A model generated the notes under the pieces. It worked only from the letters and a program-made list of their open reading frames with translations. It did not search any database and had not been told where the DNA came from. This document shows positions 1,098-51,620 of a DNA stretch of 64,000 bases, piece by piece. The DNA comes from Negaprion brevirostris. Lineage: Eukaryota. The position numbers were made by a program, and so were the translations under genes. The stretch is from the NCBI GenBank assembly GCA_030324005.1, contig JARDVH010000163.1, forward strand, positions 40,259,078 to 40,323,077, read 5' to 3'. Within the stretch, counting starts at the first letter, position 1. Every line of letters starts with the position of its first letter.

Positions 1098-2015
1098 ATG
1101 AACTGCAGCTGTGAGGTGAATGATGGCATCAAGATTTTACAGGTCATCCTCTACATTCCTACTATCATCATTGGATTAATATTCAATGCACTGGCCTTGC
1201 ATTCATTCTGCTGGAAATTAAGAAAATGGACAGAAACCACCATTTACATGACAAGCCTAGCTATTTCTGACCTCATGGTGCTTCTTATTTTGCCTTTCAA
1301 AATTTACAGTTTTCACTACAAATGGTTTAATAAGATTCCATGTAGGTTTCTTATAATCCTGCATAGAGTTAATATGTGCATGAGCATATTACTTATTACC
1401 TGCATTAGTGTGGATAGGTACATTGCAATAAAATACCCATTCAAGGCAAAGACATTGAGGTCACCAATGAAAGCAGCAGGGACATCTGCAGCTATCTGGA
1501 TTTTTACAAATTTGTGGAACATTAGTTTTTTAACTAAATTTTACAGTACATTCAATGGAACAAACTCAAGCATAGTCTGCTTCTCAACGTCTTTTAATGA
1601 GAAATCAATATTTTATACTGTTCCGAGTTTGATAGTATTTCTACTTATTCCACTGATCATTGTGACTTTTTGCTCATCTCAAATTATCCAAATACTTCTG
1701 CAAAGAAATAGGTCAAATGTAGGAGAGTTTAACACAAGGAGAACTCTACGAATTATTACGGCAAATGCAGTTGTCTTTGTTGTTTGTTTTCTGCCTTTCA
1801 ACACAACAACTTTTATTCATGTTGTAATGAGGTATCTAGAAGCTGATTGCAGTATGCTGAAGCTGATGTGTACCATCAGCGAAGTGGCAAAGTGTTTAGC
1901 CAATGTCAACTGCTGCCTTGATGGATTTTGCTTTTATCTTGTTACTGTTGAAGCAAGTGAAATTTTCCAGAAGGACTCTGATAACAATCAAACCATTGTG
2001 TTTTCCACACTGTGA
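1098..2015 (+). CDS. GPR35-like / GPR55-like class A orphan-type GPCR, 305 aa, single coding exon
   Basis: Intact ORF with seven hydrophobic segments and family motifs GLIFNALAL (TM1), WTETTIYMTSLAISDL (cf. GPR35 WTETRIYMTNLAVADL), SVDRYIAIKYP, LRSP, FVVCFLPFN (TM6) and NCCLDGFCFY (TM7). GPR35 versus GPR55 orthology is not resolved. Confidence 0.9.
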   Translation: MNCSCEVNDGIKILQVILYIPTIIIGLIFNALALHSFCWKLRKWTETTIYMTSLAISDLMVLLILPFKIYSFHYKWFNKIPCRFLIILHRVNMCMSILLITCISVDRYIAIKYPFKAKTLRSPMKAAGTSAAIWIFTNLWNISFLTKFYSTFNGTNSSIVCFSTSFNEKSIFYTVPSLIVFLLIPLIIVTFCSSQIIQILLQRNRSNVGEFNTRRTLRIITANAVVFVVCFLPFNTTTFIHVVMRYLEADCSMLKLMCTISEVAKCLANVNCCLDGFCFYLVTVEASEIFQKDSDNNQTIVFSTL

Positions 2016-3076: not shown

Positions 3077-3370
3077 AAAAGCAAAATACCGTGCATGCTG
3101 GAATCTGAAACAAACACAGAAAATTTTGGAAAATCTCAGCAGCATCTGTGGGAGGGAATAGAGCCAACATTTTGAGGCTAAATGACCCATTTTCAGAGGG
3201 TTGGGGGGTAAACCAGTGAAGGAGCTTCTGTGGTCAAGTTTGGATTAGTGAAGGGTCAGCTAGACTTGAAACGTTGGTTCTATTCTCTCCACACAGATGC
3301 TGTCAGATTTGCTGAGATTTTCTGCATTTTCTGTTTTTATTTCAGATTCCTGCAGTATTTTGCTTTTATC
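3077..3370. repeat. Inverted pair of MER6/Penelope-tail-like elements (hairpin)
   Basis: aaaagcaaaatac...gctggaatctgaaac...cagcatctgtggg... at 3077-3198 and its reverse complement at 3250-3370. Confidence 0.65.
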
Positions 3371-4601: not shown

Positions 4602-4783
4602 GTCTCCTGAAGAAAAGCAATATCAGTGCTAAGGTTCTTAAGATCTGGGAGCACTTTAGAATGCTTTACTGGGCCATTCAGTCCCCTAATATTCCATGAG
4701 TGAGAGCACCGTATCATTCTGACTGCCTGCACTAGTCACGCATGTAGGAAGACTTTAAAACAAGTCAGCAACTTGAATGATAT
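4602..4783 (-). repeat. 182-bp direct duplicate of 5961-6142 (L1 EN start)
   Basis: By-eye alignment gives 5 mismatches in 182 bp. Confidence 0.85.
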
Positions 4784-5719
4784 TGATGTATAATGCTATT
4801 GTATATTGATTATTTTATTGACTACTTCAAGATACATTTGTTTCCCTTCTCTCTTCACTGATGTGAATTCAGAATAAAAAGTATGGCAAAACAATATGTA
4901 GAGGTCGTGATCTCATTTTCATTCAGAAACCAAGACAAACCATCAGAACAAACTTCTTTTAAATTTTTTTTGTTAACTTTCAAAAAGAGAAAGGAACAAA
5001 CAAACAAAACACAATACAGTGAAACAGCCACCATCTCTGAAAAGGTGGCAATTGTGGGAGGAGGGAACTCTGCAGGGAGAAGTAATTGGGGAGGGAGGGA
5101 GGGAACTCTGCAGGAGTGGAGACTGGGGGGGGAGGGAGGGCAAGCTCCAGGAGTGTCATTTGGGGAGGGGGGGAGGGAACTGTGGCGGGGGGAGCGCGTG
5201 GTGAGGGCGNNNNNNNNNNNNNNNNNNNNNNNNNNNNNNNNNNNNNNNNNNNNNNNNNNNNNNNNNNNNNNNNNNNNNNNNNNNNNNNNNNNNNNNNNNN
5301 NAATCTGCAGGCAAAAGTGATTGCGGAGGGAGGAAGGGAACTCTGTATATTGAAGGGATTGGCGCGGGTGTGGGGGATGGATGATTTCCATTGGGCTTCT
5401 GGAGGGGTGAGAGACTGACACAGAGGTGATTGACAAGGAGACTCTTGATGTCCATCTGAGGGAGTTGAGGATAAACAGGCACAGGGGGTGATTGGCGAAA
5501 GGGTGTAAAGGGGGGCACTGATGTCCATGGGTGGGGGTGGGGGATGTAGACCGGCAGAGGGGACAATTGGTGGTGGCAAGGGGAGGGGGTACCTGATATC
5601 CATGAGATGGGTGCGGAGGGTGATAGCGGATCTCCCAGTTCACTGGGTGCTCAATGGCACCTCTAAGACCAATGGCTCAACGAAAAAGCCAGCTCAACTC
5701 TCTCCCATTTTCTCGCTCG

Positions 5720-6142
5720 TTTAACAATTAGAATTTTTTTTGCATAGACATCCACCAAAGTTATTATGGTATGAAAACGTGTGCCACTAATTATTGTATA
5801 GCAACCTCAAGGGTCTGAGATTATGTTAAAGGGGGGGGGAAGTATATTCTTTTCTTGATTAAAATTGCTGCACCGCCTAGATTTGCTGTTGAAGTTTGAA
5901 TGAAACAACTAGCCGATCCGTGCTTTGCACAATCTGGAGCAATCCTTGAGACAAAGGTGTGTCTCCTGAAGAAAAGCAATATCAGTGCTAAGGTTCTTGC
6001 GATCTGGGAGCACTTTAGAATGCTTTACTGGGCCATTCAGTCTCCTAATGTTCCATGAGTGAGAGCACCGTATCATTCTGACTGCCTGCACTAGTCACGC
6101 GTGTAGGAAGACTTTAAAACAAGTCAGCAACTTGAATGATAT
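5720..6142 (-). mobile_element. Degenerate L1/Tx1-type LINE ORF2 N-terminus (apurinic endonuclease)
   Basis: Minus-strand peptide SWNIRRLNGPVK...DIAFLQETHL matches the L1 EN motifs WN(V/I)RGL and LQETH. Confidence 0.7.
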
Positions 6143-9639: not shown

Positions 9640-10550
9640 AAGGCCCAGCCACCTTCAGCTGCTCCATCAATGACCTTCCTTCCATCATATAGTCAGAAGT
9701 GGGAATATTTGCTGATGACTGTGCAATGTTCAACACCTTTCATGACTCCTCAGATATTGAAGCAGTTCATGTCCAAATGCATCAAGATGTGGACAATATC
9801 CAGGCTTGGGCTGATAACTGGAAATTAACCTTCGCACCACACAAATGCCAGATAATGATCATGTCCAATCAGAGAGAATCTAAACATTGCCCCTTGACTT
9901 TCAATGGCATTATAATCACCGACTCCTCAACTAGCAACATCCCGGGGGTTACCATTGACCAGAAGCTGAATTGGAATTGCCATATAAATATGTGACTACA
10001 AGAGCAGGTCAAAGGTTAAGAATCCTACAGACAGTAAGTCACCTCCTGATTCCCTAAAGTCTGTCCACCATCTTGAAGTGAATACTCTCCACTTGCCTGC
10101 ATGAGTGCAACTCCAACCACACTCAAGAAGCTCAACACCATCCATGATAAAGCAGCCTATTTGATTGGTACCCCTTCCACAAACATTCAATCCCTCTGCC
10201 ACTGACGGACAGTCACAGCCTTGTGTACCATCTACAAGATGCACTGCAAGAGCTCACCAAGGTTTCTTAGGCAGTACCTTCCAAGCCCAGGATTACTATC
10301 ATCTAGAAGGACAAGAGCTGCAGATGCCTGGGAACACCACCACTTAGAGGTTCCCACCCAAGTCACTTACCATCTTGCCTTGGAAATATACTGCCGTTCG
10401 TGGGTCAAAATCCTGGTATTCCTTCCCTACTAGCCAGTGAACTGGCACTTCAAGGACTGCAGTGGTTCAAGACGTCAGCTCTCCANNNNNNNNNNNNNNN
10501 NNNNNNNNNNNNNNNNNNNNNNNNNNNNNNAGCCAGCAACGGCCACATCC
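9640..10550 (+). mobile_element. CR1-clade LINE 3' portion (RT C-terminus)
   Basis: GIFADDCAMF...QAWADNWKLTFAPHKCQ...GVTIDQKLNW; the tail is shared with the SINE at 50540. Confidence 0.85.
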
Positions 10551-11169: not shown

Positions 11170-12370
11170 CGATTGATGCACCAGTTTGATTTTCAAGTTT
11201 GCTGATGACATCACAGTTGTTGGTCAGATCTCAAACAATGATGAGGCAGAGTACAGGAATGAGATAGAGAATCTGGTGAACTGATGCAAAGACAATAATC
11301 TCTCCCTCAATGTCAACAAAATAAAGGAGATAGTCATCGACTTCAGGAAGCGCAGTGGAGGACATTGCACTGTATTCATCATGGAGACAAAGTGGAAATG
11401 GTCAGGAGCTTCAAGTTTCTAAGTATCCAGATCACCAACAACCTGTCTTAGTCTCTTCATGCTGACACTACAGTTAAAAAAAAAAACCCACCAGCAGCTC
11501 TACCTTCTCAAGAATCTAAGGAAATTTGGCATGTCCACAATGACCCTCACCAACATTTACAGATGTAACATAGAAAGCATTTTTTCTGGTTGTATCGCAG
11601 CTTGGTTTGGCTTCTGCTCTGTTCAAGACCGCAAAAAACAACAAAGGTTCATGCACAAAGTCCAATCCATCACGCAAACCAGCCTCCCATCCATTGACTC
11701 TGTCTATACTTCCCGCTTCTTTGGAAAAGCAGCCAGCATAATTAAAGACCCCACGCAACCTAGACATATTCTCCACCACCTTCGTTCGTTGGGAAAAAGA
11801 TACAAAAGTCTGAGGTCACATACCAACTGACCAACAGGGCAGCACGGTAGCAAAGTGGTGAGCACTGTTGTTTCACAGTCCAGGGACTTGGGTTCGATTC
11901 CTGGCTTGGGTCAATGTCTGTGTGGAGTCCGCACATTCTCCCCGTGTCTGCATGGGTTTCCTCAGGGTGCTCCAGTTTCCTCCCACAGTCCAAAGATGTG
12001 TGGGTTAGATTGATTGGCCATGCTAAAATTGCCTCTTAGTGTCCTGAGGTGTATAGATTAGAGGGATTAGTGTAGGGATATGGGGTGGGGCCTGGGTGGG
12101 ATTGTGGTCAGTGTGGACTCGATGGGCCAAATGGCCTCTTTCTGCACTGTAGGGTTTCAATGATTCTATGACTGAAGATAGCTTCTTCCCTGCTGCTGTC
12201 AGACTTTTGAATGGACTTACCTCACATTAAGTTGATCTTTCTCTACGCCCTAGCCATTACTGTAATACTACATTCTGCCCTCTCCCATTTCCTTCTCTAT
12301 GAATGATATGCTTTGTCTGTATAGTGCGCAAGGAACAATATTTTTCACTGTATACTAATACATGTGACAA
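11170..12370 (+). mobile_element. Rex1/Babar-type LINE 3' portion interrupted by an HE1 SINE
   Basis: KFADDITVVGQISNNDE...LNVNKIKEIVIDFRK...QQLYLLKNLRKFGMS...YRCNIESIFSGCIAAWFG; resumes at about 12175. Confidence 0.85.
11837..12170 (+). mobile_element. HE1-type SINE, full length
   Basis: gggcagcacggtag head, ggttcgattcc B box, V core and CR1-like tail ending tgattctatg. Confidence 0.9.
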
Positions 12371-13069
12371 AATATGTTGTCTCTTTGGAATCAGTTGTAT
12401 TTCTAAAGGCTAAGCAGCATTTAGATCTTTATTGCACTGAACCCATCAGTGTATTTTCTAGTCTAGTTATTGTTGTCCATGAAGAGTTTTCCAGAGAGAA
12501 TGGCTTGTCAGAGTTCATGTCAGAGTCCAGAGATGATAACACTACTAGCAAGCTGATACCTCCCAGGGATGAAAGCTAATTGACACCCATACTTTAGTTC
12601 CAGCTCAAAGTCTTCCTGCCAGAGCCATAGCATAGGCCCCTTGACAGAATTCTTAGCTCTTCTGAAGCTGCAGAATCCAGTCTAGCAATCTTGTCCCTCA
12701 TCTTAATTGCCTGTAGGAAGTTTGTCCCATTGCAGAAAGTGGGACTACTTCGTTTCCACATCTTTCTCAGTTCTTCCCATTGTGCAGTGTAGAGCAATCT
12801 CACACAGAGAATACTCCTACAGAAACAATCCTAAAAAAAACATTGGGAAATCAGCTTTTCTATTTATCTTGAGAAAAACATGTAGAAACTTGGTACCTTT
12901 CTCCACTTTCAAGTTAATTCAAATCTCAGAAATGGGATGACTTTTCAGTCTTCACTATCGCGGTGAAAGATCTGGCTGTGGTATTCGTCATTGGAGTTGC
13001 AGATCATTCATCCTCTGTGATCACCAACAACCCTCTATGAGGATTCTTCCTCTGTGAGCTTCAAGGAAC

Positions 13070-13519: not shown

Positions 13520-14480
13520 CTATGAGCTATGAATTAGGAGCAGGAAAAGGCCACGCAACCCCTCGAGCCTCCTCCACTATTCATCAAGATCATGTCAGAT
13601 CTGATTGCAATCTCAAGTCCATTTTACCACCTACCCCAATTAACCTTTCATCCTCTTACTTATCAAGAAACTATCTACCTCTGTCTGGAAAATATTCAAA
13701 GGCTTTGCTTCCACCACCTTCTTAGGAAGAGAGTTCCAAAGACTCGCTGTGTAAGTTGCTCCACTCTCAGCAATGGGAAGAACAGCGGAAATTGGGGAAA
13801 CAAGTTAGTCCCGTTTTCTGCAATGAGATGAACTTCCCACAGATGATTAAGATGGGACAAGATTGCAGTACTGGATTTTGCAGCTTTTGAAGTGCTAAAG
13901 ATTCTGTCGAGGCTTTTGTTCTGACACCTAGCTCTGGAGAGAGAAAGGTTGTCCTCACCTCCGTTTTAAATGGGCAATCCTTTATTTTTAAACAGTAACC
14001 CCTAGTTCTAGATTCTCCCACAGGAGGGAACACCCCCTCCACATCCATGCTGCTAAGACCTGTCAGGATCTTATCTGTTTCAATCAATTTGCCTCTTACT
14101 CTTACTCCAGTAGTTACAAGCTTAGCCTATCCAACTTTTCCTCAGAAGACAACCTACCAATCCTGTACACAGTACTCCAGATGTGGTCTCACTAATGTTC
14201 GGTAAAACTGAAGCATAACCTCCCTACTTGCATATTCAATTCCCTTCCCAATAAACAATAACATTCTATTAGCTTTCCTAATAGCTTGTTGCATACTAAC
14301 CTGCTGCTATTGATGCACGAGGACACCCAAGTGCTTCTGTATCTCAGAGCTGTACAGTCTCTCACCATTTAGATATATGCTTCTTTTTCATTCTTCCTGC
14401 CCAAGTGGACCCTTTCACATTTTCCAACACATTACTCCATTTGCCAGATCTTTGCCCATTCATTTAACCTATTCCAATCT
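13520..14480 (-). mobile_element. CR1-type LINE 3' fragments
   Basis: LIETDKILTGL..D...FPPVGESRTRGY.LKIK..PFKTEVR peptide typical of the CR1 ORF2 end, plus the 3' UTR. Confidence 0.75.
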
Positions 14481-33225: not shown

Positions 33226-33995
33226 CTGCAAACACACAGTCTTTTTGAAAGTTCATTTTAAAGCTGCAATACCGTTCAGTCTCAAAGCTTTACCTGACTG
33301 TATTGAAAAGTGCCAGCTACCATCCATTTTAAAATGTCACTGCAAAACAAACTTATCTTTCACACTTTCCATTAATTCAAAAGCAGCAGTCACTTTTTCC
33401 TCGGTCGGAAGTATTTGCTGCTAAAAAGAGTGGCTTTCGTAAGTAAGAAGTAACGTTGAAAGGAAGTCATTTATGCATTAAGAGGGTTAATCTCTCTTCA
33501 TTACACTGTGTGGTAAATTAAAATTCGTATTTTCCCTCTTGGTTTAACATATTCAGGGGTAATGTTTAAATGAAGCCCATGGACTGACTCCATGAATTAT
33601 TTTCAAAGGCAGCATGATGTAGCTGGGTAGCCAATTTAAACACAGCCACAGTAATGTTACTGAATCCAGCCCAGTCAATCCCTTCATAGTTTTAACAATC
33701 TCTATTAGGTCCCTTAAATTCTTATTTTTGATTCCAAAGCTACTCAATCATTCCTTGTAGTTCCATCTGCTCATCTCTGGTAACCTCCTTGTAAATCATC
33801 ACTGGGGGTAGGGACCAATATTTAGTCCACAACTGGGACCATATCATTCAATTTCTTTTCTTTTCAGGTCAGGCAATTTGGAATTCTGCTCTCATTAGTT
33901 TCATTCTCAGGTCACAATCTTACTCTCTCAGTGCAGCTCACTTCACAACCTCAAATGTGCCATGTGTACATGCTGGTGTTGGACTGGGGTGGTGC

Positions 33996-34170
33996 CAGTA
34001 AGAAGTCTCACAACACCAGGTTAAAATCCAACAGGTTTATTTGGAATCATGAGCTTTCGGAGTGCCGCTCCCGATCCAACATTCACCTGATAAAGGGGCA
34101 GCACTCCAAAAGCTCGTGATTCCAAAAAAATCTGTTGGATTTTACCCTTATGTTGTGAGACTTCTTACTG
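33996..34170. repeat. Palindromic Penelope-terminus-like hairpin
   Basis: cagtaagaagtctcacaaca...aaaatccaacag...ggaatcatgagctttcggagtg pairs with cactccaaaagctcgtgattcc...ctgttggatttt...tgttgtgagacttcttactg. A single arm also occurs at about 57606-57690. Confidence 0.7.
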
Positions 34171-35191
34171 CACCATGTGTACAACATTCACTGTATACTA
34201 TGATTCTAATGTTTGTCAACATGTACGAGAATTGCTTTTTTAAAAAATAAACTTTTTCCANNNNNNNNNNNNNNNNNNNNNNNNNNNNNNNNNNNNNNNN
34301 NNNNNACTGGGCTTGGTGTATGACGTTGTCATATTAACAGGTCTTTACAAGTCACCCATTCAGCACATACGGAGGACATTTAGCTTATTGTGCCTGTGCT
34401 GGTTCTTGGAAAGAGTTTTCCAGGTAGTTCGACGCCCTTGTTCCTTTACCTGTGCCCTGAAATTCCATCACTTTCAATCAGGAAGATGAAAGGATTTAAA
34501 ATGATTCGTAACCGAGTGATTCCACTAACTTCGGATGCAATTCACTCAATTCAATAACGATTTTCATAGTTCACACTAGGGGAGATAAAACAGACTTCAG
34601 TAGGTTTCTAGCCAGCTCCTCATATAATATTCCCTAATTGGATACATACGACATTATGTTGAGATCAGTCTTTATTTTCTATACGTGATTTTCACTTACT
34701 CGATAACAATGTGTACGTAGATCTCATGGAAGCCCTGAACTGTTTCAGGCAATCCTGATACTTAAATTAGCCATTAACAATCAGACATTGTCCAGTCCTT
34801 TCCTTGCAAACAAGCTTGTCTTGTCTCTATATTTGTGGTGCCAATTCAATGACATTTTCAATCTTAACAATGCTGTGATGGCTTTTTGCCAGCTGGACTC
34901 AGTATGGAAAACCTTCCCAATTAGGTAAAAGCAAATTACTGCAGATGCTGGAATCTGATACCAAAAGAGAAAATGCTGGAAAATCTCAGCAGGTCTGGCA
35001 GCATCTGTAAGGAGAGAAAAGAGCTGACGCTTCCAGTTCAGGTGACCCTTTGTCAAAGCTTTGACCTGCTGAGAGTGTCCAGCATTTTCTGTTTTGGCTT
35101 TATTATTAGGTACTGGTTGAATCTTTCACATGCTCACATTACAGCCAAAGTATCATTTTCTACACGTGTCTATCATAAATAAATCTTCTAT

Positions 35192-36359: not shown

Positions 36360-38200
36360 AATAGGCTGAAATCCAGGCATCGTTCTTGTACACACATGTT
36401 GCACTCCCTCCAAGGACAATATCTCTTTCCTAAGGTGTGATGCCCAGATCTGCTCACAAACCAGGGTTTTGTATAGCTGCAACATAACCTCTATACCCTG
36501 ATACTCCATCCTCTAGATATAGAGACCACCATTCCAATAGTCTTCTTGATTATTTTCTGTACCTGTTTGTGGTATTTTAAAAATCTATGCTTCTGGACCC
36601 TCAAGTCTCTTTGGACAGCTATTGTATTTAACCTCATACCATCTAGAAAGTACTCTGATCTATTCTTTTTCTGTCCAAAATCGATAACTTTGTATCGCTT
36701 AATTAAAATCCGTCTGCCACTGTTTTGCCCATTCACTTATTCTATCAATATCCCTTTGTAATTTTATGCTATCAGATACACTATCCACAATGCTGCCTAA
36801 CTTTGCGTCATTGGCAAATTTAGATACATGACTTTCTATGCCATTATGTAAGTCATTAATAAATAATGTTAATAATTGAGGCCTCAATGCAGACCCTTGT
36901 GGGACACCACTAGTCACATCCCACCAACTTGAATACCTGCATATTATCCCTACTTCCTGTCACCTGCCAGTCAACCGATTTCCCAACCATGTCAGTACTT
37001 TACCCTCAATTCCATGGGCTTCTTCACAAAAACAGAAAATGCCTGAGAAACTCAGCAGGTCTGTGCTGAGACCATGTGGAGAGAGAATAAAACCAAAATT
37101 TCAAGTCAGGATGACCCTTCATCAGAACTCATCACCTGACGAAGGGTCATCCTGACTCGAAATGTTAGCTCTATTCTCTCTCCACAGATGGTGTCAGATC
37201 TGTTGAGTTTCTCCAGCATTTTCAGTTTTTGTTTCAGATTCCAGCATCTGCAGTACTTTGCCTTTATCTCCAACCTTACTTAACAGTGCCTTAAGAGGGA
37301 TTTTATCAAGTACCTTCTTGAAGTTCATATAAACTACATTCATAGACATTCCCCTGTCCAAAACCTTGGTGACCTCTTGAAAAATTCAATAAATTTTGGT
37401 AGGCATGACCTACCTGTCGTGAATCCATGCTGACTCTATCTGACCAACTGAAAATGTTTGAGGTGTTCAGTTTCCCTACCCTTGATTATAGACCCCAACA
37501 ATTACCCCACCACTGATGTTAGGCCAACTGGTCTGTAATTCCCAGTTTTTCTCTTTCACCCTTCTTAAAAAGTGGAATGACATGAGCAATTTTCCAACCT
37601 AGAGGGGCAACTCCTGAATGTTGGGAAGTCTGAAAGATTTCAGTTACGGTATTGACAATGTGCTTCCTTTAACATCCACAGTGGAAACTGTCAGGTCCTG
37701 GAGATTTGTTGCTCTTTAGTTGTATTAATTTCCTCTATCAATGTTTTATTGATGTCAATTGTATTTGATCCCAGTCCTCGATTCACTATTACTTACATTG
37801 AAATTTCATGCAAGCTATCCTCCTTTTCTACACTAAATACTGAGGCAAAATAGTTGTTCAACTTGTCTGACGTTTCCCCATAGTCACTGATAATATCCCC
37901 ACTTTCAGTCTTTAGTGGGCCAACACTGCTCTTGATCACTCTCTTTCCCTTTAAGTAACTATAGAATGTCTTCTAATTGATTTTGATGTCACTTGCAAAT
38001 CTCCTTTCGTAATAAGACCATAAGATCATAAGACATAGGAACAGAATTAAGCCACTTGGTCCATCAAGCCTGCTCTGCCATTCAATCATGGCTGATATTT
38101 TTTTCATCCCCATTCTCCTGCCTTTTCCCCATAACACCTGACCCCCTTAGTAAGCAAGAACCTATCTATCTCTGTCTTAAAGACACTCAATGACCTGGCC
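36360..38200 (-). mobile_element. CR1-type LINE ORF2 remnant (RT region), about 1.6 kb, plus an adjacent CR1 3' end
   Basis: VTSGVPQGSALRPQLLTLFINDL...SKFANDAKLG...LQRDIDRISEWAKQWQTDFN; interrupted at 37025-37265. Confidence 0.88.
37025..37265. repeat. Palindromic MER6/Penelope-tail-like hairpin inserted in CR1
   Basis: aaaacagaaaatg...agtcaggatgacccttc|...|gaagggtcatcctgact...cattttcagttttt are inverted arms. Confidence 0.7.
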
Positions 38201-41353: not shown

Positions 41354-42893
41354 CTGTATAAAAATAACCCATTAATAGCAGCCAGTAGAGCTTCAGAAGT
41401 AGAAAACTGAGGTGAATAAAGAATTGGCTGAAAGAAAACAGTGACCTGGCTCTGTGACACAAGAGGTCATTCCGATTAGCACAGGAGAACCCAATTCTGA
41501 TCAGTCACTGGGCTACAGGACATTAATCTTACCAGATTCTGGGCTAGGGGGTGGACGGGGGTGGTGTGGGGGGAGGAGGAATGGGGAGCAGTGGTTGGCG
41601 AAACAATGCTGTTGAAGCGATAGCNNNNNNNNNNNNNNNNNNNNNNNNNNNNNNNNNNNNNNNNNNNNNNNNNNNNNNNNNNNNNNNNNNNNNNNNNNNN
41701 NNNNNNNNNNNNNNNNNNNNNNNNNNNNNNNNNNNNNNNNNNNNNNNNNNNNNNNNNNNNNNNNNNNNNNNNNNNNNNNNNNNNNNNNNNNNNNNNNNNN
41801 NNNNNNNNNNNNNNNNNNNNNNNNNNNNNNNNNNNNNNNNNNNNNNNNNNNNNNNNNNNNNNNNNNNNNNNNNNNNNNNNNNNNNNNNNNNNNNNNNNNN
41901 NNNNNNNNNNNNNNNNNNNNNNNNNNNNNNNNNNNNNNNNNNNNNNNNNNNNNNNNNNNNNNNNNNNNNNNNNNNNNNNNNNNNNNNNNNNNNCAGCATA
42001 TGCAGAGGCAAATTTGGGTGGGGGGGGGAGGGGTTAGAAATGGCTACTCATTCAGTTCCGAATATAGCTTGTTTCGGATAGAATTATTTCCAGAATCGAT
42101 GGGCAAAGTGGGAAAAAATGAATTTTGACATCCCGAAAAATATCTGAGAAAATATTAACTTGAGAACATTTGCTTATTAACTTGTGCAGACAAAAGAAAA
42201 CATTCACAGTAAATTAACTTCACTCTCTCAACACTAATCTTTCTCATGTGCCTTTCCCAGGAGGGACCACTCTGTGCACAAGGGTAATAAGTGAGAGTCA
42301 CAAGGGGAAGTTAGCAAATTAGAAATGGACAAAATAATTGCATGCTACCTGGCACGCTATCAGTTTTTCCTTCATATTTATAGAACAGGAGTTTAAACCA
42401 AATTGTTGATCTGTTTATTCAGTCCAGCTGCTCGACCCAGAATGAAAGCCTCAGCGATAAAAGCAGGTCTGTCCAAGTTCCTGGCAAAGGTTGACTAACG
42501 TCTTGAGGCGAGATTCCTCGGTGCAGGCTTGAAACCTCAGCATATTTCACACTCACACAGTAGCCATCAGATTACAGAACTGAAAAACAGAGGCTCAGTT
42601 CTGCTGCTCTTGAACTCGGTGTAGCATGGGACGTCTGGAACTGAGAACCCTAAAACTAGCAAAAAACAGCCAACACTTATATACACTTTCCAAAAGAAAA
42701 TATACTTAGGATATGCGCTAGTCTGAGTAAATCGCACATTAAACCTGGTGCTGGAAATCTACTGTAATGTGTCTTCCTCCTCCCTATGTATTCAGTATAC
42801 CCAAATATCCCATTCTTCAACAATCCACCTCATCCCAGAAAGTCCATACACAATATACAGGACTATTTTACTTGACCCTACAGGAAGTAATTC

Positions 42894-43120
42894 TTTATTT
42901 TTTACTCCACTCTTAAAGTTACAAAACCAATGCTCAGAATGGACCAAACAGACCCGAATCCAGTCTTTGCTTGTTCCAAAAACCAATTGAAATTCAAATT
43001 GAATCCAATTCATGATCCCCACAAAAGAGACATAAAACATCCAACTGACAAGGAAAGGCATTATACCTGATCTTGGGCTTCATCTGACACTTGATCTTAG
43101 TCAAAAGACCAAGAAGCAAA
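42894..43120 (-). mobile_element. U2 snRNA-derived repeat, copy A (full length, diverged, internal duplication, A-rich tail)
   Basis: Reverse strand starts TTTGCTTCTTGGTCTTTTGACTAAGATCAAGTGT (U2 5' end ATCGCTTCTCGGCCTTTTGGCTAAGATCAAGTGT). The remainder is colinear with U2 (GGTTTTTGGAACA for the Sm-site region, GTCCATTCTGAGCATTGG for the 3' stem region) and ends GGAGTAAAAAATAAA. Confidence 0.75.
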
Positions 43121-43794
43121 AGTTTCACCGACACTGACTCCCAATAACCTCGATATCCCACAAAGTTTACCTCTTACTGGCCTTTATGCAGCTGCAAATA
43201 TCGGGCACTGTGTTTAAACCAGGCATTTGAACCTCGTGAGCAACAACAAAATCTTTGAATAAAATATTCTACCAAACTTCAAATTTTCCAATTCTACAGA
43301 CCGTCCTTGCACCAGAAATCTGATGCTTATACAATCATTGTCACTGGACTCCACATTATATATCAGAGAAGGGTTGGCCCACTCCATTCCTATTTGTCAA
43401 GCTTGTACTAAAATGTATAAGTGGGCAAACGATTGACGGCTGCACTGTGTAACTGCAGTTCGTGTAACTGAAAAACAGGTTCCTTTCCTTTAAACACTGC
43501 AGGATTTTGGAAGTGTGAAAACGTTTTGTTTTGGTATTTTTAAATTTGTGTCTTCACTGGAAAGAGATCTTCCATTGTCCCATCAATCTTTTCCCTCCTC
43601 TCCTGAAATAGATAGTTCAAATTGAAAAATGGCTTGCACAGGTACTGGTAGCCCCTCTGGTATCTGGCACAAGTGACCATTCTTTGAGCTTTGACATGGA
43701 AAAGTTAGCAATTCAACTGTTTTGAGAAGTATGTGTGCATTAAACTTTTTAACACAATGATAATAAAAACTCTGATGACCTGAGAATTTGGTAA

Positions 43795-44092
43795 CAAGTT
43801 TAAGGTTTATTGATTGGTGTCACAAGCAGGTTTAAATTAACACTACAATGGGGATACTGTGAAAACCCCCTATACGCCTGTCCGAATACATAGATTTGAG
43901 TATTTAGCATGGCCAATGCAAAACCAGCACATCTTTTGGACTGTGGGAGGAAACCAGAGCATACAGAGGAAACCCACGCAGACATAGGGAGAACGTGTAG
44001 ACTCCACAAAGACAGTGACCCAAGCTGGGAATCGAACCCGAGTCCCAGGTGCTGTGAGGCAGCAGTGCTAACCACTGTGCCACCATGCTGCC
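43795..44092 (-). mobile_element. HE1-type SINE head/core with an alternative 3' tail
   Basis: HE1 head and core, but tail ...ttttcacagtatcc...cttgtgacaccaatcaataaac instead of the CR1-like tail. Confidence 0.85.
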
Positions 44093-44214
44093 CACATTCT
44101 GATCAAAGCCAAGGAAGGTTATACCCCTAACAACTGCTTTCTGAAATTTGCAAGTCCCATTCAAGTCCTTTCCATTGGAAAATCCTCCTAGTAAATCAAA
44201 CAGTCTGGACAAAA

Positions 44215-44545
44215 ATAGGAGCAGGAATAGGCCAGTTGCCCTTCAAACTGCTTTGCCATTCATTATGATCATAGCCAATCATCTAACTTAATAGCCTGAT
44301 TCCACCTTTCCCCTCATACCCTTTGATCCTTTTTGCCCCAAGAGCAACATGTAACTCCTCCTTGAAAACATGCAACGTTTTGGACTCAACTGCTTTCTGT
44401 GGTAGAGAATTCCACAGGCTCACATTCTCTGGGTGAAGAAATTTCTCCTCATCTCAGTCGTAAAAGGTTTACCTTATATCCTTAGACTGTGACCCCTGGT
44501 TCTGGACTTGCCCACCATCAGAAACATCCTTCCTGCATCTAGGCT
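44215..44545 (-). mobile_element. CR1-type LINE 3' end
   Basis: Reverse complement of tccagaaccaggggtcacagtctaaggata...gaggagaaatttcttcacccagag. Confidence 0.8.
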
Positions 44546-45370
44546 GTCGGGCTACTGGATGTCTTTAAACTGGTCTGGATTTATATGCATGTGTCAGATG
44601 CTGCTTGGCTTCCATGTGTTCAGCCATCAGGTGAGGATCACTTTTGTGACCACATTCACTTTCCTGTGCCCCAAAAGCATTTCACACAGATGTGAAAGCA
44701 GCGGTATAACTGCAATCTAAATGAAACCATGCGCCATCAGCTGCATTCATGATTAGCTTTGAATAATATAAAGACATGACTGCTGTGCATCTTTTAGGGC
44801 AAAAATACCACTCCAACTTTCTCAAGGCTAATGCCAGTAAATTCCATTCGCATTGTTTGTGACAACCCTTTGCCAGAAACACTATGCTGCAGATTAACCT
44901 GTCAAAGTATTGGTCACAAAAACAAACAAAAAACTGCAGATGGTGGAAATACCTAACAGGCCAGGCAGCATCTGTGGAGAAAGAAATAGAGTTAACTTTT
45001 CAGTGATCTTTCAGTAGAACTGGAAGATGTCAGGCAAGTGTAACTTCTCAGCAAGAATGGATCAACAGCAAAGGAGACAGAACTAAAACAAAAACAGAAA
45101 ACATTGGGGATACTTAACTGCTGAGAGACACAACAAAACGAAAGGAATAATCAAGCATAGGGTTTGATGGCAGGGATGATTAAATGACAGACATGATGAT
45201 TGTGCAATACAGCAGGAGGTGAATACAAATATAGATGGAAAGTTGAAGTGTAAATCCTTGCAGCAAATAGCAGAGGAAACTCTGGCAAACAGAAGACTTC
45301 CAGACCTGAGAAATGTGGCAGCAACCAGAAAGCCAGATAGACTCCAGGACTGCTAAACACCTCATCAGTG

Positions 45371-45578
45371 GGGGTTAAGATTAAATTTCAGATCAAGCCC
45401 AAGATCAGGTGCAACGCCTCATCTTGTCAGCTTGGATCTTGTTTGTCTCTCTTGTGGGGACCATGAATTGAATTCAATTGAAATTTTAATTGTTTCTTGG
45501 AGCAAACAAGGAGATAGATTTGGGTCTGCCGGGTCCATTCTGAGCATTGGCCTTGTAACTTCAATAATGGAGTAAAAA
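45371..45578 (+). mobile_element. U2 snRNA-derived repeat, copy B (5'-degraded), inverted relative to copy A
   Basis: Colinear with copy A over about 190 nt (cagat.aagcccaagatcaggt...ccatgaattgaattcaatt...gtccattctgagcattgg...ggagtaaaaa). Confidence 0.72.
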
Positions 45579-46284
45579 TTAATTCCCAGCCTGTATAAAT
45601 CCAGTGGCTCTGGGCAAAGATCCTCCAATTCCAGCAACTGTTGTCTGAAACCAAATGGGAGCAGGTTTTAAAGCCTAGTATATTAGTCACTTACACTTGC
45701 CTGGCTGTAGTTTCTTTCCCTCTGCTCAATGCTCCCTCTACTCATGCCCATGCCCTTTTAAAACAACCATGTAACCATGTCTGATTTACAAATACAACAG
45801 CATTGGTTGTTTCATCTGTATAACAGATGATACATCAAACATCCAAACGATTGTTATGCATGTGCTGGCAAATTGAACGATTACAGGATTGTAATGGTTT
45901 TCCAACAGAGCTTAANNNNNNNNNNTTCGGAATGTATCCCACAGTGGAATGAAAAATAGAAAGTTCACAGTGAAAAACATGCAATTCCCACATCATTGGC
46001 AGTTTCAAATCAATTCTCGAAATGTCCATTTTGCTCATCAAGTTGACTGCTTTAAAAGATTTTATTAGAATATTGTAGTGCTTCTATCCAAACTAAAGGA
46101 ATCAGAATAGTCTGAAATTGCCTGACAGCAGCTTGTAGCTACTTATAGCTATTCAACTACGTGAAGCAGAACGGTCGTATTCTGCAAAAACATTAACAGA
46201 TGTCTATTTGTTTTTCACCTAGTTTGACCAATGTCAAGTGGCACTGACATGAATAAGAAATGGCACGGCTGAAATAACCAACCT

Positions 46285-46672
46285 CTAGAATCCCTACAGT
46301 GCAGGAGGAAGCCATTCGGCCCAATACGTCTGTACCAACTCTCCAAAAGAGCATTCCAACCAGAACCGCCCCCCCCACCCCACCACCTTATCCCCTTAAC
46401 CCCACACACTTACCACAGCAAATCCACCCAACCTGCACATCTTTGGACAGTAAGCGGCAATTTTGCATGTTCTGCCCATGTCTACATGCATTTCCTCCAG
46501 GTGGTCCCATTTCTTTCATCTAAAGACGTACAATTTAGGTGGATTGGCTATGATCCATGTGTGCGGTCACAGGGATAACATGGGGAAGTGGGCCTAGGTG
46601 AAGTGCTCTTTCAGAGGGTCACTGGAGACTTAATGGGCTGAATGACCTCCTGCTGCACTGTAAGGATTCAAT
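46285..46672. mobile_element. Two HE1 3' halves in inverted orientation
   Basis: Minus-strand tail at 46285-46450 joined to a plus-strand core and tail at 46460-46672. Confidence 0.65.
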
Positions 46673-47429
46673 GCTTTTATAACATATCTTCAGTAACTGA
46701 GAACAATTATTTTCTCCCCACAAGGTTGAAATTTGACGGGGTAAGCTTAGAGGAGAGATACAAGTTGCAGTAGGGCTGGGAGAGACAATAGTATTAGAAT
46801 AAAAAGTATTCAGAAATAAAATGGATCAAATAGTGGGATAAATGTAAGGCAGATTAAGAAGGGTTAGAGTGCATGGGCATAAATACTGGGAATGTGTTAA
46901 CAGCGTAAATGGCAAAGGGAGAGGCACACATGAAATGTATTTCTTGATCAGTTTACAGCCCATTGAGAGGAAGCTGTGCTGGATCCAACTTTATTGGAAT
47001 GAGGTGAGAAAAATAAAGCGTGTCATGGTGGGAGAGCAATTGGAAAACAGTGATCATAATATTATTAACGGTTCAGATTTTCCGGCCAGTGGTGAAGTGA
47101 TAATGCCCAATGCTGACCTCAAAGGAACACTTCCCACAAAGACCTAGTAAGCTCTGCATCACGGATTTCTCCTTCTTTGTTAATTTCCTTCTGACATCAG
47201 CAGTGGCAGATATCTGATACCCAACAATAGTGACATCTTCAAGCAAGCTAAACACAGGATCACACTAAAGAACTCTCAGACAGAAAACCAGAAAATAGCA
47301 AGCAGGTTTAATTTTTCACTTTTCACTATTTCACAGAAGATGAAATAGAGCCTGGGACACTCATTTGGAATTAAAGTAGAAGCTAAAATATTTTAAATTC
47401 ACTAAAAGAGAAATTCAAAAATCCTTGAA

Positions 47430-48989
47430 ATTTTAAGCATGGATTTGAGAAGTTTGACATTCCAAAAATATAAAATTCTGCTTTCTGGGACAGAAAGTTT
47501 ATACAGTAGCAGTTTTGACTTAGTACACTGCTAAATCCTTTCCATCTCATTCAATAAGGTATTGTGGGAGTGTTGGTTTGTTCTTTCAAAGCAAGGGCNN
47601 NNNNNNNNNNNNNNNNNNNNNNNNNNNNNNNNNNNNNNNNNNNNNNNNNNNNNNNNNNNNNNNNNNNNNNNNNNNNNNNNNNNNNNNNTGAATTTGGGCA
47701 TTACATATTGACTGCTCACAGGCCGGGATAGAGCAGAGTACTTTTCACATAAAATGATGAGTTGGGTTTTTCCGAGTTCAGTGTTAAAAAAGTTACATTA
47801 ATCTCTGGGTGAAGGTTTCGAAAATGGCAGCAATTGAAAACCATATTGCATGTAACACTCATATTGGAAGAGGATGCACCTCGTTTATGAGAGTGTGAAA
47901 ATTTGTTTTACTCCATCAATTACATCATTGCAGAGGACGGACAAATCACAAGCTTCACCCTACTTGTCCCTCCATCTTCAATTCTCATATTCCATCCTGG
48001 TGGTTTCCTGCAGCAGTTAATCGCTCATGACTAATTTCACCTCTTCCTCACATATACCAAAGCTGCATTCTGCTCCCCTTTGGCCATCATTTCCTTGGCT
48101 TACATTGAAAGGTTGAGTGAGAAAGTTTAATTCAGGAGAGTTTGAAAAAAATCCAAATTGTTGTGCAACTGGCTGAACATTTCCTCAGACTGATTCAAGT
48201 CCGTATTTAAGTTTGCAGCTTTGGTTTATCCTCTGCATTCATTTGAATAAACTAAAGTAAGAGCAATTAGGGACATTTAAAAGAAGACTATAAAATGTCC
48301 AATAATTTAGAGTAAAGTTTATTTATTAGTCACAAGTAAGGCTTACATTAACACTGTAATGAAGTTACTGTGAAATTCCTGGTATCCAGCATATTGAAAG
48401 CCGTAAACACTTTCCCTGTACAGAGTCCATCAAAATTTATTCCCCCACACACACGGACACATGGATGCAGCACAGTGGTTAGCAGTGCTGCCTCACAATA
48501 CCAGGAGTCCTGGTTCAATTCCTGGCTTGAGTCACTGTCGATGTGAAGTCTGCACGTTTCCCCATGTTTGCATGGATTTTCTCCTACAGTCCGAAAGATA
48601 TGATCATTAGGTGTATCGGCCATGCTAAATTCTCCCTCAGAGTACTAGTACAGGAGTTTGGCGTCAACGGGATTTTCACAGTAACTTTGTTGCAGTGTTA
48701 ATGTAAGCCTACTTGTGACACTAATAAATAAACTTAAACTTCTGGCAAATGTTAACCTTAAAACTAGTGGGAAATTCACAGCCATATTTCAGATTTAAAT
48801 GTTTCACTGGAAGTTGTTAAATCATTTTAAAAGAGTTAACTTTAAAATTTCTAGCTGTGGAAGTTTTAGCGTGGATTTGAGAAATTTGACATTCCATAAA
48901 TATAAAAATCTGTTTCTGGGGCAGAAAGTTTATATCGTAGCAGTTTTGATTTCGTACACTGCTAAAGCCTTTACATCTCATTCAACAAG
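47430..48989 (+). repeat. Direct duplication of about 130 bp (47430-47558 and 48858-48989) in SNORC intron 1
   Basis: ggatttgagaa.tttgacattcca.aaatataaaa...cagaaagtttata...tagcagttttga...gtacactgctaaa.ccttt.catctcattcaa occurs twice. Confidence 0.8.
48463..48740 (+). mobile_element. HE1-type SINE with alternative tail; an inverted tail copy lies at 48312-48379
   Basis: gcagcacagtggttagcagtgctgcc head; tail ggattttcacagtaactttgttgcagtgttaatgtaagcctacttgtgacactaataaa. Confidence 0.85.
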
Positions 48990-49353
48990 ACAATGTGAGA
49001 CTAACATATTAGCTGTACAAACAGCTAAATATATGCACAGCCCCTAAACCCGTCTGCTTGAAAGCCAGCCCCAGCTTAGCTCAATCTCTGGATTTTAATA
49101 ATAGCTCCTGCAGCAAGATTTCCATTGCCTGAGAAATATTTTTTATTTTTGCACCCTCATACACAATGGTATAATTTTGACTATTAAATGAAACACATAC
49201 TTTGATCACAAGAATACACATATTAGAGCAGATAATGTATCAACACTGATCAAGGCACCATTGCATATAAAGAAAGAGTGAAGATGGTGACTCTATAAAG
49301 TAAGTTCACTCTCCAGGATGAATGAAGTGTCAGGAATGGAATAGTAATCCTAC

Positions 49354-50115: not shown

Positions 50116-51620
50116 CAGTTATTCATAAATTGAGAGATGTTCACACATCACGATGCTATTTTAGTGCTATTTTTGTCTGGAGCTAAAAATTAAGCCTGGC
50201 GTTACAGTCTTATTAATACTGTTTGGAAGAGATTTAGTTCCTAGCCTTAGGGTTGTGTGTTTTTGGTCTCAAATTGCTGACATGATTCTCAGGGGAAACA
50301 AAAATCTAATCTAGCATTTTGGGTTTGCTTTTCACATTTTCAGAAATGATAAACCCGCTTTGGGTGGGAGCTCGATTGGGATTTACCCGATCACCCTGCC
50401 AGCCCATAACAGGTAGCAAACTGATTAATATGGGTTTGACAGCCCATTCACCAGGCCCCTGCCATGCACCTGGCCCCCCAGTGGGAAATGCACCGGGCGA
50501 ACTTTGNNNNNNNNNNCCACTCCTCTTCCCTCCTTCCCAGTCGATGGCCGAGTGTATTATCACTAAACGATTAATCCAGAAACTCACCTAATGCTCTGGG
50601 GACCTCAGTTCAATTCCCACCATGGAAGATGGTGGAATCTGAATTCAATAAAAAACATCTGGAATTAAGAATCTACTGGTGACCATGAAACTATTGTCGA
50701 TCGTCGGAAAATCTCATTAGGTTCAATAATGTCCTTTGGAGAGGGAAAGGTGCTGTCTTTACCCGGTCTAGCCTACATGTGACTTGAGAGCCACAGCAAT
50801 ATGGTTGACTCTCAACTGCCCTCTGAAATGGCCTAGCAAGCCCTCAGTTGTATTAATCAAGGGCCACTAGGGATGGACAATAAATGCTGCCCAGCCAGCG
50901 ACGCCCATGTCCCTCAAAGGAACAGAAAAAACATATAAATATATGGGTGACCCAAACCACTCCTCAGATCACCACCTCAGCCACCCTTCCCCTCAGACCC
51001 CTTTCCCTCTCATACCCCCACTTAGTCCCCATTCAGGACATGCCTTGGCAGTGCCCATGGTATAATAGTCCCTGCCACTACAATTAGCGGGTTTGCATAT
51101 TAAATGCAAGTTGCGATCTGGTTGGGCCAGCAGGATGGGTCGGCAAAATCTTGATTGGCTTGATGCCCATCTGGAATCCCAATATCTGGTCAATGCCTCA
51201 TTTGGCGGGCCATCAAGACACCCCTGGCCGTCTGCCAAGGCTGGCGAATCCAGCCCTCCATGTTAATATAACCATCAGTTTATTCCTTCTCTCTTCCTTT
51301 CTTAGAATTGAAAGGAATGAAGGAATTTTGAAAGTCAAATTTTAAACAGTAATCCGGCAGGCACCAAAATGAGAATGTGAAANNNNNNNNNNAATGTGAA
51401 AAGCGAACCCTAAATGTTAGATTAGATTTTTGTTTCACTGGAGACTTAATCATGCCAGCAAGTTGAGACCAAAAACACTCAACCCTAAGGCTAGGAACTA
51501 AATCTCTTCCAAACGCTATAAACAAATCTGAAACTCCAGGCTTTGTTTTTACCTCCCAGACTGAAATAGCACTAAAATGGTACTATGATGTGTGAACATC
51601 TCTCAATTTATGTACAGCTG
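50116..51620. repeat. Long inverted repeat (arms 50116-50339 and 51393-51620) upstream of SNORC
   Basis: For example gtttggaagagatttagttcctagccttagggttg versus caaccctaaggctaggaactaaatctcttccaaac; arms about 225 bp, spacer about 1.05 kb. Confidence 0.85.
50540..50925 (+). mobile_element. Second tRNA-type SINE family with CR1-derived tail (other copies at 63830-64000 + and 7860-8015 -)
   Basis: taatccagaaactc...taatgctctgggga...ttcaattcccaccatgg...gaattcaataaa...tggttgactctcaactgccctctgaaatggcc...aataaatgctg. Confidence 0.75.

Follow-up and report, generated by a model that had tools for sequence, protein, structure and literature searches.

A 64,000-nt stretch of the genome of the shark Negaprion brevirostris (GenBank assembly GCA_030324005.1, contig JARDVH010000163.1, positions 40,259,078 to 40,323,077 of the forward strand; hereafter the window, whose own coordinates are used below) contains two related elements, copies A and B, derived from U2 small nuclear RNA (snRNA). 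Sequence comparison indicates that both descend from one already modified U2 sequence, that the element is U2 from nt 4 (A) or about nt 21 (B) to at least nt 160, and that the U2 origin probably reaches its 3′ end. The branch-site motif had disappeared from the ancestor, which had acquired a palindromic insert and a 12-nt unit in three copies; part of loop IV had apparently been lost as well. We favour, at roughly even chances, the reading that A and B are dead copies left by a retroposon made from almost the whole U2 snRNA and similar to SINEU, the snRNA-derived short interspersed elements (SINEs) of crocodilians (PMC4494074). Whether the element forms a genome-wide family is an evenly balanced matter.

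Two inverted copies of a U2-derived element

42894..43117, minus strand: copy A, the longer U2-derived element, starting at U2 nt 4 and reaching roughly to the 3′ end, followed by a short A-run
45375..45582, plus strand: copy B, missing ~20 nt at the U2 start, with the 3′ end, insert and triplication seen in A
43121..45374, no strand: 2.25-kb spacer between the heads, with open reading frames (ORFs) negative for Pfam

The initial annotation of the window had placed two related copies at 43120-42894 (minus) and 45371-45578 (plus). Both were confirmed with slightly shifted ends, the start of B moving to about 45375, which corresponds to U2 nt 21-22, as the first ~20 nt of U2 are absent from it. 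BLASTN aligned 42895-43099 with 45582-45376 at 81.6% identity over 207 nt (E 4e-50). The copies, 207-224 nt long and thus below 500 bp, lie in inverted orientation about 2.28 kb apart, heads inward and tails outward, and the spacer carries pieces of other window repeats (43796-44095, 44215-44262, 44385-44530 and 44924-45001). An assembly artefact as the source of the pair was ruled out by the 18% divergence and the gap-free interval between the copies.

Homology between A and B is confined to the element. Flanks of 30, 60, 150 and 300 nt scored at background level in 8/8 comparisons when set against random window pairs (fraction 0.21-0.85), and since flank similarity is at the random level, the repeated unit is the element itself. 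In the 64 kb, a profile built from both copies gave no third copy (best further match E 1.7), and a 19-mer common to A and B occurred only twice with up to 3 mismatches. What had been described as a dispersed repeat is, within the window, just two copies side by side.

Extent of the U2 homology

43087..43117, minus strand: head of A, equivalent to U2 nt 4-34, 28/31 identical
42976..42984, minus strand: Sm-site-like U-run of A

For reference, U2 genes were fetched from eukaryotic contamination in bacterial genome records, where 38 loci carried the motif. Scanning of 20 of these confirmed 20/20 as U2, and 14 distinct full-length genes were retained, three of which (L002, L025 and L029) we take to be of vertebrate type. 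The 38 loci (L001-L038), some of them beside 5S rRNA, U5 or tRNA genes, are eukaryotic contamination of GTDB assemblies.

The 28 identities in the 31-nt head bear out the claim that A begins with the 5′ end of U2. The Rfam check suggested for both copies gave a mixed outcome: for A, RF00004 returned 33.7 bits (E 3e-4), short of the gathering score of 46, and aligned confidently over the first ~34 nt only, while neither B nor A without its head was recognised as U2. No Rfam match reached the gathering level in the window, and other matches near the locus were at chance level. A canonical U2 gene was rejected on this sub-gathering or absent match and on the branch-site pairing motif, which is altered in both copies, as had been noticed from the sequence at the outset.

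Analysis of the bodies, taken from U2 nt 36 onward and excluding the head, revealed similarity well beyond this first piece. Against the three vertebrate-type references, z-scores were 8.2, 4.0 and 5.4 for A and 6.7, 3.6 and 4.5 for B, and ranged from 0.3 to 4.6 for the remaining 11 references; of 500 shuffles, 0 or 1 reached the score for the three vertebrate-type references. A search with nhmmer and a three-sequence profile recovered A (E 5.2e-7, model positions 4-153) and B (E 3.6e-6, model positions 21-160), the next match having an E of 0.41; a 14-sequence profile performed less well (head of A 1.8e-5, B 0.082). Identity to U2 amounted to 97-105 of 150-156 globally aligned columns, across all segments. 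The colinearity first proposed up to the 3′ stem of U2 thus holds to nt ~160, but for the last ~25 nt similarity is not significant on its own (P 0.03-0.55 in 6 tests). Likewise, the U-run of the proposed Sm-site region is present in A but interrupted in B.

Keno and Utopia retrotransposons place a long coding body into U2 at nt 38/39 (PMC4640811), and a U2 stub followed by such a body was considered and rejected: the bodies match U2 to about nt 160, and no reverse transcriptase was found among 119 ORFs around the locus. The initial annotation had named similarity limited to the U2 head as grounds for abandoning its reading; this was tested and excluded, the body being U2-like past nt 35. Among the 38 loci, L004 219-334 (minus) has a U2 5′ part that ends near nt 41 and is followed by unrelated sequence, possibly from an insertion close to the site that Keno/Utopia use; other contigs of the same record hold tandem U2 genes with a 2,081-nt spacing (L010-L012).

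Remodelling shared by both copies

43065..43100, minus strand: three tandem 12-nt units (U2 nt 21-32) of A, the first as in U2, the second and third diverged
45375..45410, plus strand: three 12-nt units of B
43049..43075, minus strand: equivalent of U2 nt 22-48 in A, with the branch-site motif lost and a hairpin that occupies the register of the branchpoint-interacting stem loop
42989..43014, minus strand: AATT-rich region of A with an insert of ~17-18 nt between stem IIb and the Sm site
45466..45479, plus strand: perfect 14-nt palindrome within the AATT-rich insert of B

The segment AAGATCA(A/G)GT had been reported as repeated after a short spacer. The repetition stands, but the spacer is itself a diverged 12-nt unit, so the segment is tripled. 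Together with the AATT-rich insert and an apparent loss of 8 nt from the loop of stem IV in both A and B, the tripled unit is a derived feature common to the two copies.

To these indels, point changes can be added. In U2 nt 21-60, 36 of 40 positions are constant across all 14 references, and of these invariant sites 27 agree with U2 in A and 26 in B. Six identical changes are found in A and B where 1.3 would be expected under independent decay (P 1.2e-4). These six changes and the common indels point to a single modified U2 ancestor rather than to independent U2 retrocopies, upholding both the derived features and the common descent first proposed.

At invariant sites, the ancestor had already diverged from U2 by ~17% when A and B split. 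Since then, each copy has drifted by ~9-10% (147/181 positions identical; 23 transitions and 11 transversions), and CpG dinucleotides are down to 1-2 from 6-10. The resulting A-B identity of 81% resembles that of the main SINE of the window (mean 79% for 62 pairs among 13 copies), so both copies have decayed about as much as this SINE.

The head of A appears cleaner than its body: it has 3 differences in 31 positions, and body sites that are just as invariant show 9 in 36. Decay after insertion alone explains the head divergence (P 0.66 at 9.5%), and the body rate would rarely yield so few head differences (binomial P 0.02-0.03), although a Fisher test gave P 0.12. The remnant of the first unit in B is less clean (10/13).

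Folding of the ancestor and of the copies

45390..45440, plus strand: extended 5′ hairpin of B (-20.6 kcal/mol), formed by the duplicated unit and the tightened branchpoint-interacting stem loop
42904..42919, minus strand: 3′-terminal 6-bp hairpin of A, not found in U2, followed by six A (42903-42898)
45558..45578, plus strand: 3′-terminal hairpin and five A of B

Stem I of A retains 8/8 pairs: a double change, C13U with G20A, preserves a pair (P 0.008), and C10U closes a mismatch. The predicted energy of the branchpoint-interacting hairpin (U2 nt 22-48) is -2.1 kcal/mol in U2, -5.4 in A and -10.6 in B; this helix was chosen after inspection, and the host's own U2 was not among the references. 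When only the changes common to A and B were applied to U2 nt 22-48, the energy fell from -2.1 to -11.3 kcal/mol (P 0.002 versus random changes). Tested singly, tightening of the hairpin gave P 0.12 for A and P 0.005 for B, and pair count gave P 0.02-0.03. A30G, present in both copies, and U43A, present in B, correspond to the engineered stabilising mutations M1 and M2 (PMC13019295). The common changes, which include a stem-loop-stabilising base change made in the laboratory, thus resemble a natural experiment on U2 structure.

Compared with 200 shuffles, both copies fold better than most (A z -1.7, 13/200; B z -2.9, 0/200). Mutual structural conservation of A and B did not reach significance (structure conservation index 0.69 versus 0.63, P 0.23), and compensatory pairs between them numbered 4 versus 1.7 (P 0.07). 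Overall, modest evidence suggests structural constraint before the A/B split and little suggests it afterwards, a succession of constraint and decay that would fit a master with dead copies.

The favoured retroposon reading

In the reading that we favour, the ancestor would have been a master that was transcribed and whose folding was under some selection, because the ancestral changes tighten, rather than break, the 5′ hairpin. As the element has no internal promoter, transcription would start from a flanking one. A fresh U2 5′ piece (to nt ~34) may have been gained by template switching during reverse transcription, as in SINEU. A long interspersed element (LINE) would have copied the transcript in trans, priming at the A-ended 3′ terminus, with B truncated at its 5′ side. 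The master transcript, its mobilisation by a LINE and the amplification are what we infer; the U2 origin, the common modified ancestor, the decay of both copies and homology bounded by the element and ending at the A-run are what is observed. The younger-looking head relative to the body would also fit, by analogy with the 5′ additions of SINEU. An independent insertion of B is a tentative proposal, the alternative being a local copy of A, and both are compatible with a master family.

Several observations weigh against this reading. Only two copies are present in 64 kb, and they are adjacent. The A-runs at the common 3′ boundary measure 6 nt in A and 5 nt in B, so that the A-rich tail first described is just a short run; neither copy has an adjacent target-site duplication, and no tail of a partner LINE was found in the window. 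In the folding analysis, pair retention over five U2 helices varied with the reference (P 0.018, 0.0002 and 0.34), Watson-Crick pairs over the same helices did not exceed the null, and neutral quasi-palindrome correction can also tighten hairpins. Copy number was approached through a proxy, comparison of translated frames with predicted proteins, which is weak, since it covers few frames and relies on ORF calls that are spurious. With the main window SINE as a control, a family that may occur in many fishes, one frame had 30 matches at 56-95% identity. For A, one sense frame yielded no candidate and alignment of three antisense frames none at E 1; two HMMER matches from one antisense frame were discarded as unrelated repetitive proteins. 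The empty proxy argues weakly against a very abundant family and is silent on one the size of a SINEU family. Finally, three unrelated repeat pairs in the window resemble A/B, with arms of 172-228 nt, 78-85% identity and separations of 0.9-1.3 kb:

50116-50338 and 51393-51620: close pair whose right arm starts at a 10-N gap and may be longer
12639-12810 and 13744-13912: close pair
47403-47569 and 48828-49000: close pair

A possible local duplication of one pseudogene

These pairs lead to a strong alternative, which we regard as possible though less likely than not: one old U2 pseudogene decayed, gained indels and was copied once, inverted and 2.3 kb away, by a DNA-level templated duplication, with no family involved. 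Two random points in 64 kb are expected within 2.5 kb of each other in 7.6% of cases, and 4/10 two-copy repeat pairs lie that close (P 0.005), or 3/9 without A/B (P 0.026). The count had been 6/12 before two pairs straddling one assembly gap (4602/5961 and 5069/5304) were dropped. Those direct repeats, 4602-4783 / 5961-6142 (97%) and 5069-5110 / 5304-5345 (88%), flank the gap at 5210-5301 and are possibly an assembly overlap. The three other close pairs, two inverted and one direct, are similar to A/B in arm length and identity, have no further copy in the window and show no common terminal motif. The excess suggests a local duplication process or elements with long terminal inverted repeats (TIRs), and the size of A/B fits the locally made pairs of this genome. 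Absent target-site duplications, empty protein-proxy searches and the lack of significant structural conservation between A and B agree with a single duplication. The initial annotation had itself named a local inverted duplication, with A and B as the sole copies, as grounds for abandoning its reading, and the close pairs lend that condition support.

A duplication of this kind does not account equally well for the other results. The copied stretch coincides with the U2-derived unit, within a few nt at the 3′ side and ~20 nt at the 5′ side, which we estimate at about 1 in 10 for a 200-nt copy taken at random. Moreover, in a pseudogene decaying neutrally, the head would not be expected to resemble U2 more than the body does, nor would common changes that tighten a U2 hairpin be expected. 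If just two copies exist, the pair would be an ordinary old pseudogene with a local duplication, of little interest.

Possible inverted ends of a mobile element

42856..42884, plus strand: two TA|CAGG motifs (42856 and 42879) just outside the tail of A, a possible transposon end, target motif or chance
45590..45595, plus strand: CCTG|TA just outside the tail of B, mirroring the motif outside A

The inverted geometry with outward tails raises an unlikely possibility, namely that A and B are the snRNA-derived inverted ends of an amplified mobile family, either a DNA transposon or a SINEU-like retroposon that hit both ends of a host transposon. The master RNA of such a family would have shed the splicing surfaces of U2 and locked its branchpoint-interacting stem loop shut. 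A slightly less probable version takes A and B as a built-in pair: the long TIRs of a ~2.7-kb non-autonomous Tc1/mariner-type transposon that captured a U2-derived retroposon, or two SINEU-like insertions that targeted mirror-image sites at either end of a host transposon. TA|CAGG occurs within 25 nt beyond both tails (raw chance of a 5-mer at both ends ~7e-4, the motif having been picked post hoc), and we take TA|CAG to be a Tc1/mariner end. As precedents, SINEU lies in Mariner-N4_AMi at two sites in opposite orientation (PMC4494074), and MER6 is a mariner MITE (miniature inverted-repeat transposable element) carrying V-SINE sequence (PMC6887750). MER6 is likewise a DNA transposon with retroposon sequence, but has mariner-derived ends around its SINE part, whereas here the retroposon-like sequence itself would form both inverted ends.

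Homology extended from the A-run to TA|CAGG was not significant (P 0.13-0.17; 5′ side P 0.44), and no host transposon with outer inverted repeats around A/B was found in the window. Such signals come about readily in AT-rich flanks, as a competing direct repeat of 6 nt found at the outer ends illustrates (P 0.02-0.03), and the other close pairs share no terminus. None of the 119 ORFs of at least 30 aa in 41994-47598 matched a transposase or reverse transcriptase in Pfam, though non-autonomous elements need no transposase. A protein-coding reading of the locus was dropped, as these ORFs gave one sub-threshold, implausible Pfam match.

Elsewhere in the window, 46288-46669 is a self-inverted stretch of main SINE sequence bounded by TA|CAG and CTG|TA, either a head-to-head SINE pair or a MER6-like element. 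Its ends indicate that the TA|CAG motif can stem from SINE ends.

Promoters and the functional-gene alternative

It is very improbable that A and B are divergently transcribed functional genes for a variant U2-like RNA, such as non-splicing decoy snRNAs, whose flanks have drifted apart: both copies do fold better than shuffles and stem I of A carries its double compensatory change, but B lacks the 5′ end and has an interrupted Sm-like run, CpG has decayed and the A-B differences look neutral. No proximal-element-like or full octamer motif was detected within 400 nt upstream of either copy, nor a 3′ box; a partial octamer with 7/8 bases lies at -79 of A. The variant snRNA that the initial annotation had entertained is hence disfavoured at these loci by the missing promoter and 3′ box motifs and by CpG decay. 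Patterns of the RNA polymerase III A and B boxes were likewise absent from the element. ARAGORN reported 0 genes in the window, and a plasmid BLAST gave no match.

Comparison with known snRNA-derived elements

The retroposon that we favour most resembles SINEU-3 and SINEU-2, a likeness drawn from descriptions, and an origin independent of SINEU seems likelier. The hallmark of SINEU-1 and SINEU-2 is that U1/U2 pieces were added repeatedly at the 5′ side, and SINEU-3 also has a 32-nt U2 5′ piece (PMC4494074). Like A/B, SINEU-3 is built from U2 and its copies have an internal rearrangement in common, a ~32-nt 5′ piece, an A-ended 3′ terminus and no internal promoter. In its old copies, target-site duplications are hard to see. 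Unlike A/B, it has lost ~50 bp internally and carries ~40 nt on its 3′ side that do not come from U2, whereas A/B are colinear with U2 to nt ~160 with a tripled 12-mer, a palindromic insert and a small deletion. SINEU-1 and SINEU-2 share with A/B the repeated addition and partial duplication of snRNA 5′ pieces, and the 3′ part of SINEU-2 is U2-derived, but A/B have neither a U1 head nor a non-snRNA 3′ half. Judged by the features that define SINEU, the two copies show a U2-derived 5′ head, a common derived structure, a length below 500 bp and no RNA polymerase III promoter. SINEU families number about 137-7,700 copies per genome, old copies show target-site duplications only occasionally, and the target preference, shared with the Tx1 partner, is for Mariner-N4_AMi (PMC4494074).

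Ordinary U2 retropseudogenes, either full length with poly(A) or 3′-truncated, share with A/B the U2 origin, the A-run and CpG decay; they are independent copies of canonical U2, whereas derived substitutions and indels are common to A and B. A/B, Keno/Utopia and the YURE-targeted U2-derived satellites are all associated with U2 5′ sequence that is split or duplicated, and reptile Utopia leaves 20-bp target-site duplications in U2 (PMC4640811). In A/B, by contrast, the first U2 piece ends at nt 34, the insert is a U2 copy, no reverse transcriptase lies nearby and the arrangement is not tandem.

SINEU was not found outside crocodilians (PMC4494074, in the part available). The literature searched at the level of listings and opening parts of abstracts, mostly open-access and with Repbase Reports, which might already catalogue such a family, outside its scope, contained no SINE derived from an snRNA for cartilaginous fish; looking up terms in PMC5499810 (where neither 'snRNA' nor 'SINEU' occurs), PMC5381603, PMC7245038, PMC4758252 and PMC10620051, as far as their text was accessible, returned no such element. 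If A and B belong to an amplified family, mobile elements derived from snRNA would have originated a second time, independently and outside crocodilians. An internal RNA polymerase III promoter is normally required by SINEs; SINEU is the exception, its transcription being an open question (PMC4494074). A near-full-length U2 family in a second lineage would mean that this route is repeatable and would offer a second system for the amplification of promoter-less snRNA copies.

Other features of the window

The main SINE of the window, which we take to be a shark-type V-SINE, comprises 17 fragments, for example 43796-44095 (minus) with 16-19 other loci, and has a tRNA-like head and a weak mascRNA-like Rfam match at 44017-44081. 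Fold-back, MITE-like repeats lie at 37026-37232, 3077-3367 and 33990-34175; the first has a sub-threshold match to a plant miRNA precursor (38.9 of 54 bits), most likely reflecting its hairpin shape. Three degraded LINE pieces (9693-9992, plus; 36702-36959, minus; 11423-11827, plus) gave two RVT_1 matches below the cut-off and one weak ALKBH8_N match. Unlinked to A/B, an intact single-exon G protein-coupled receptor gene occupies 1098-2015 (plus), its best solved relative being GPR35 (E 8e-46), followed by GPR55.

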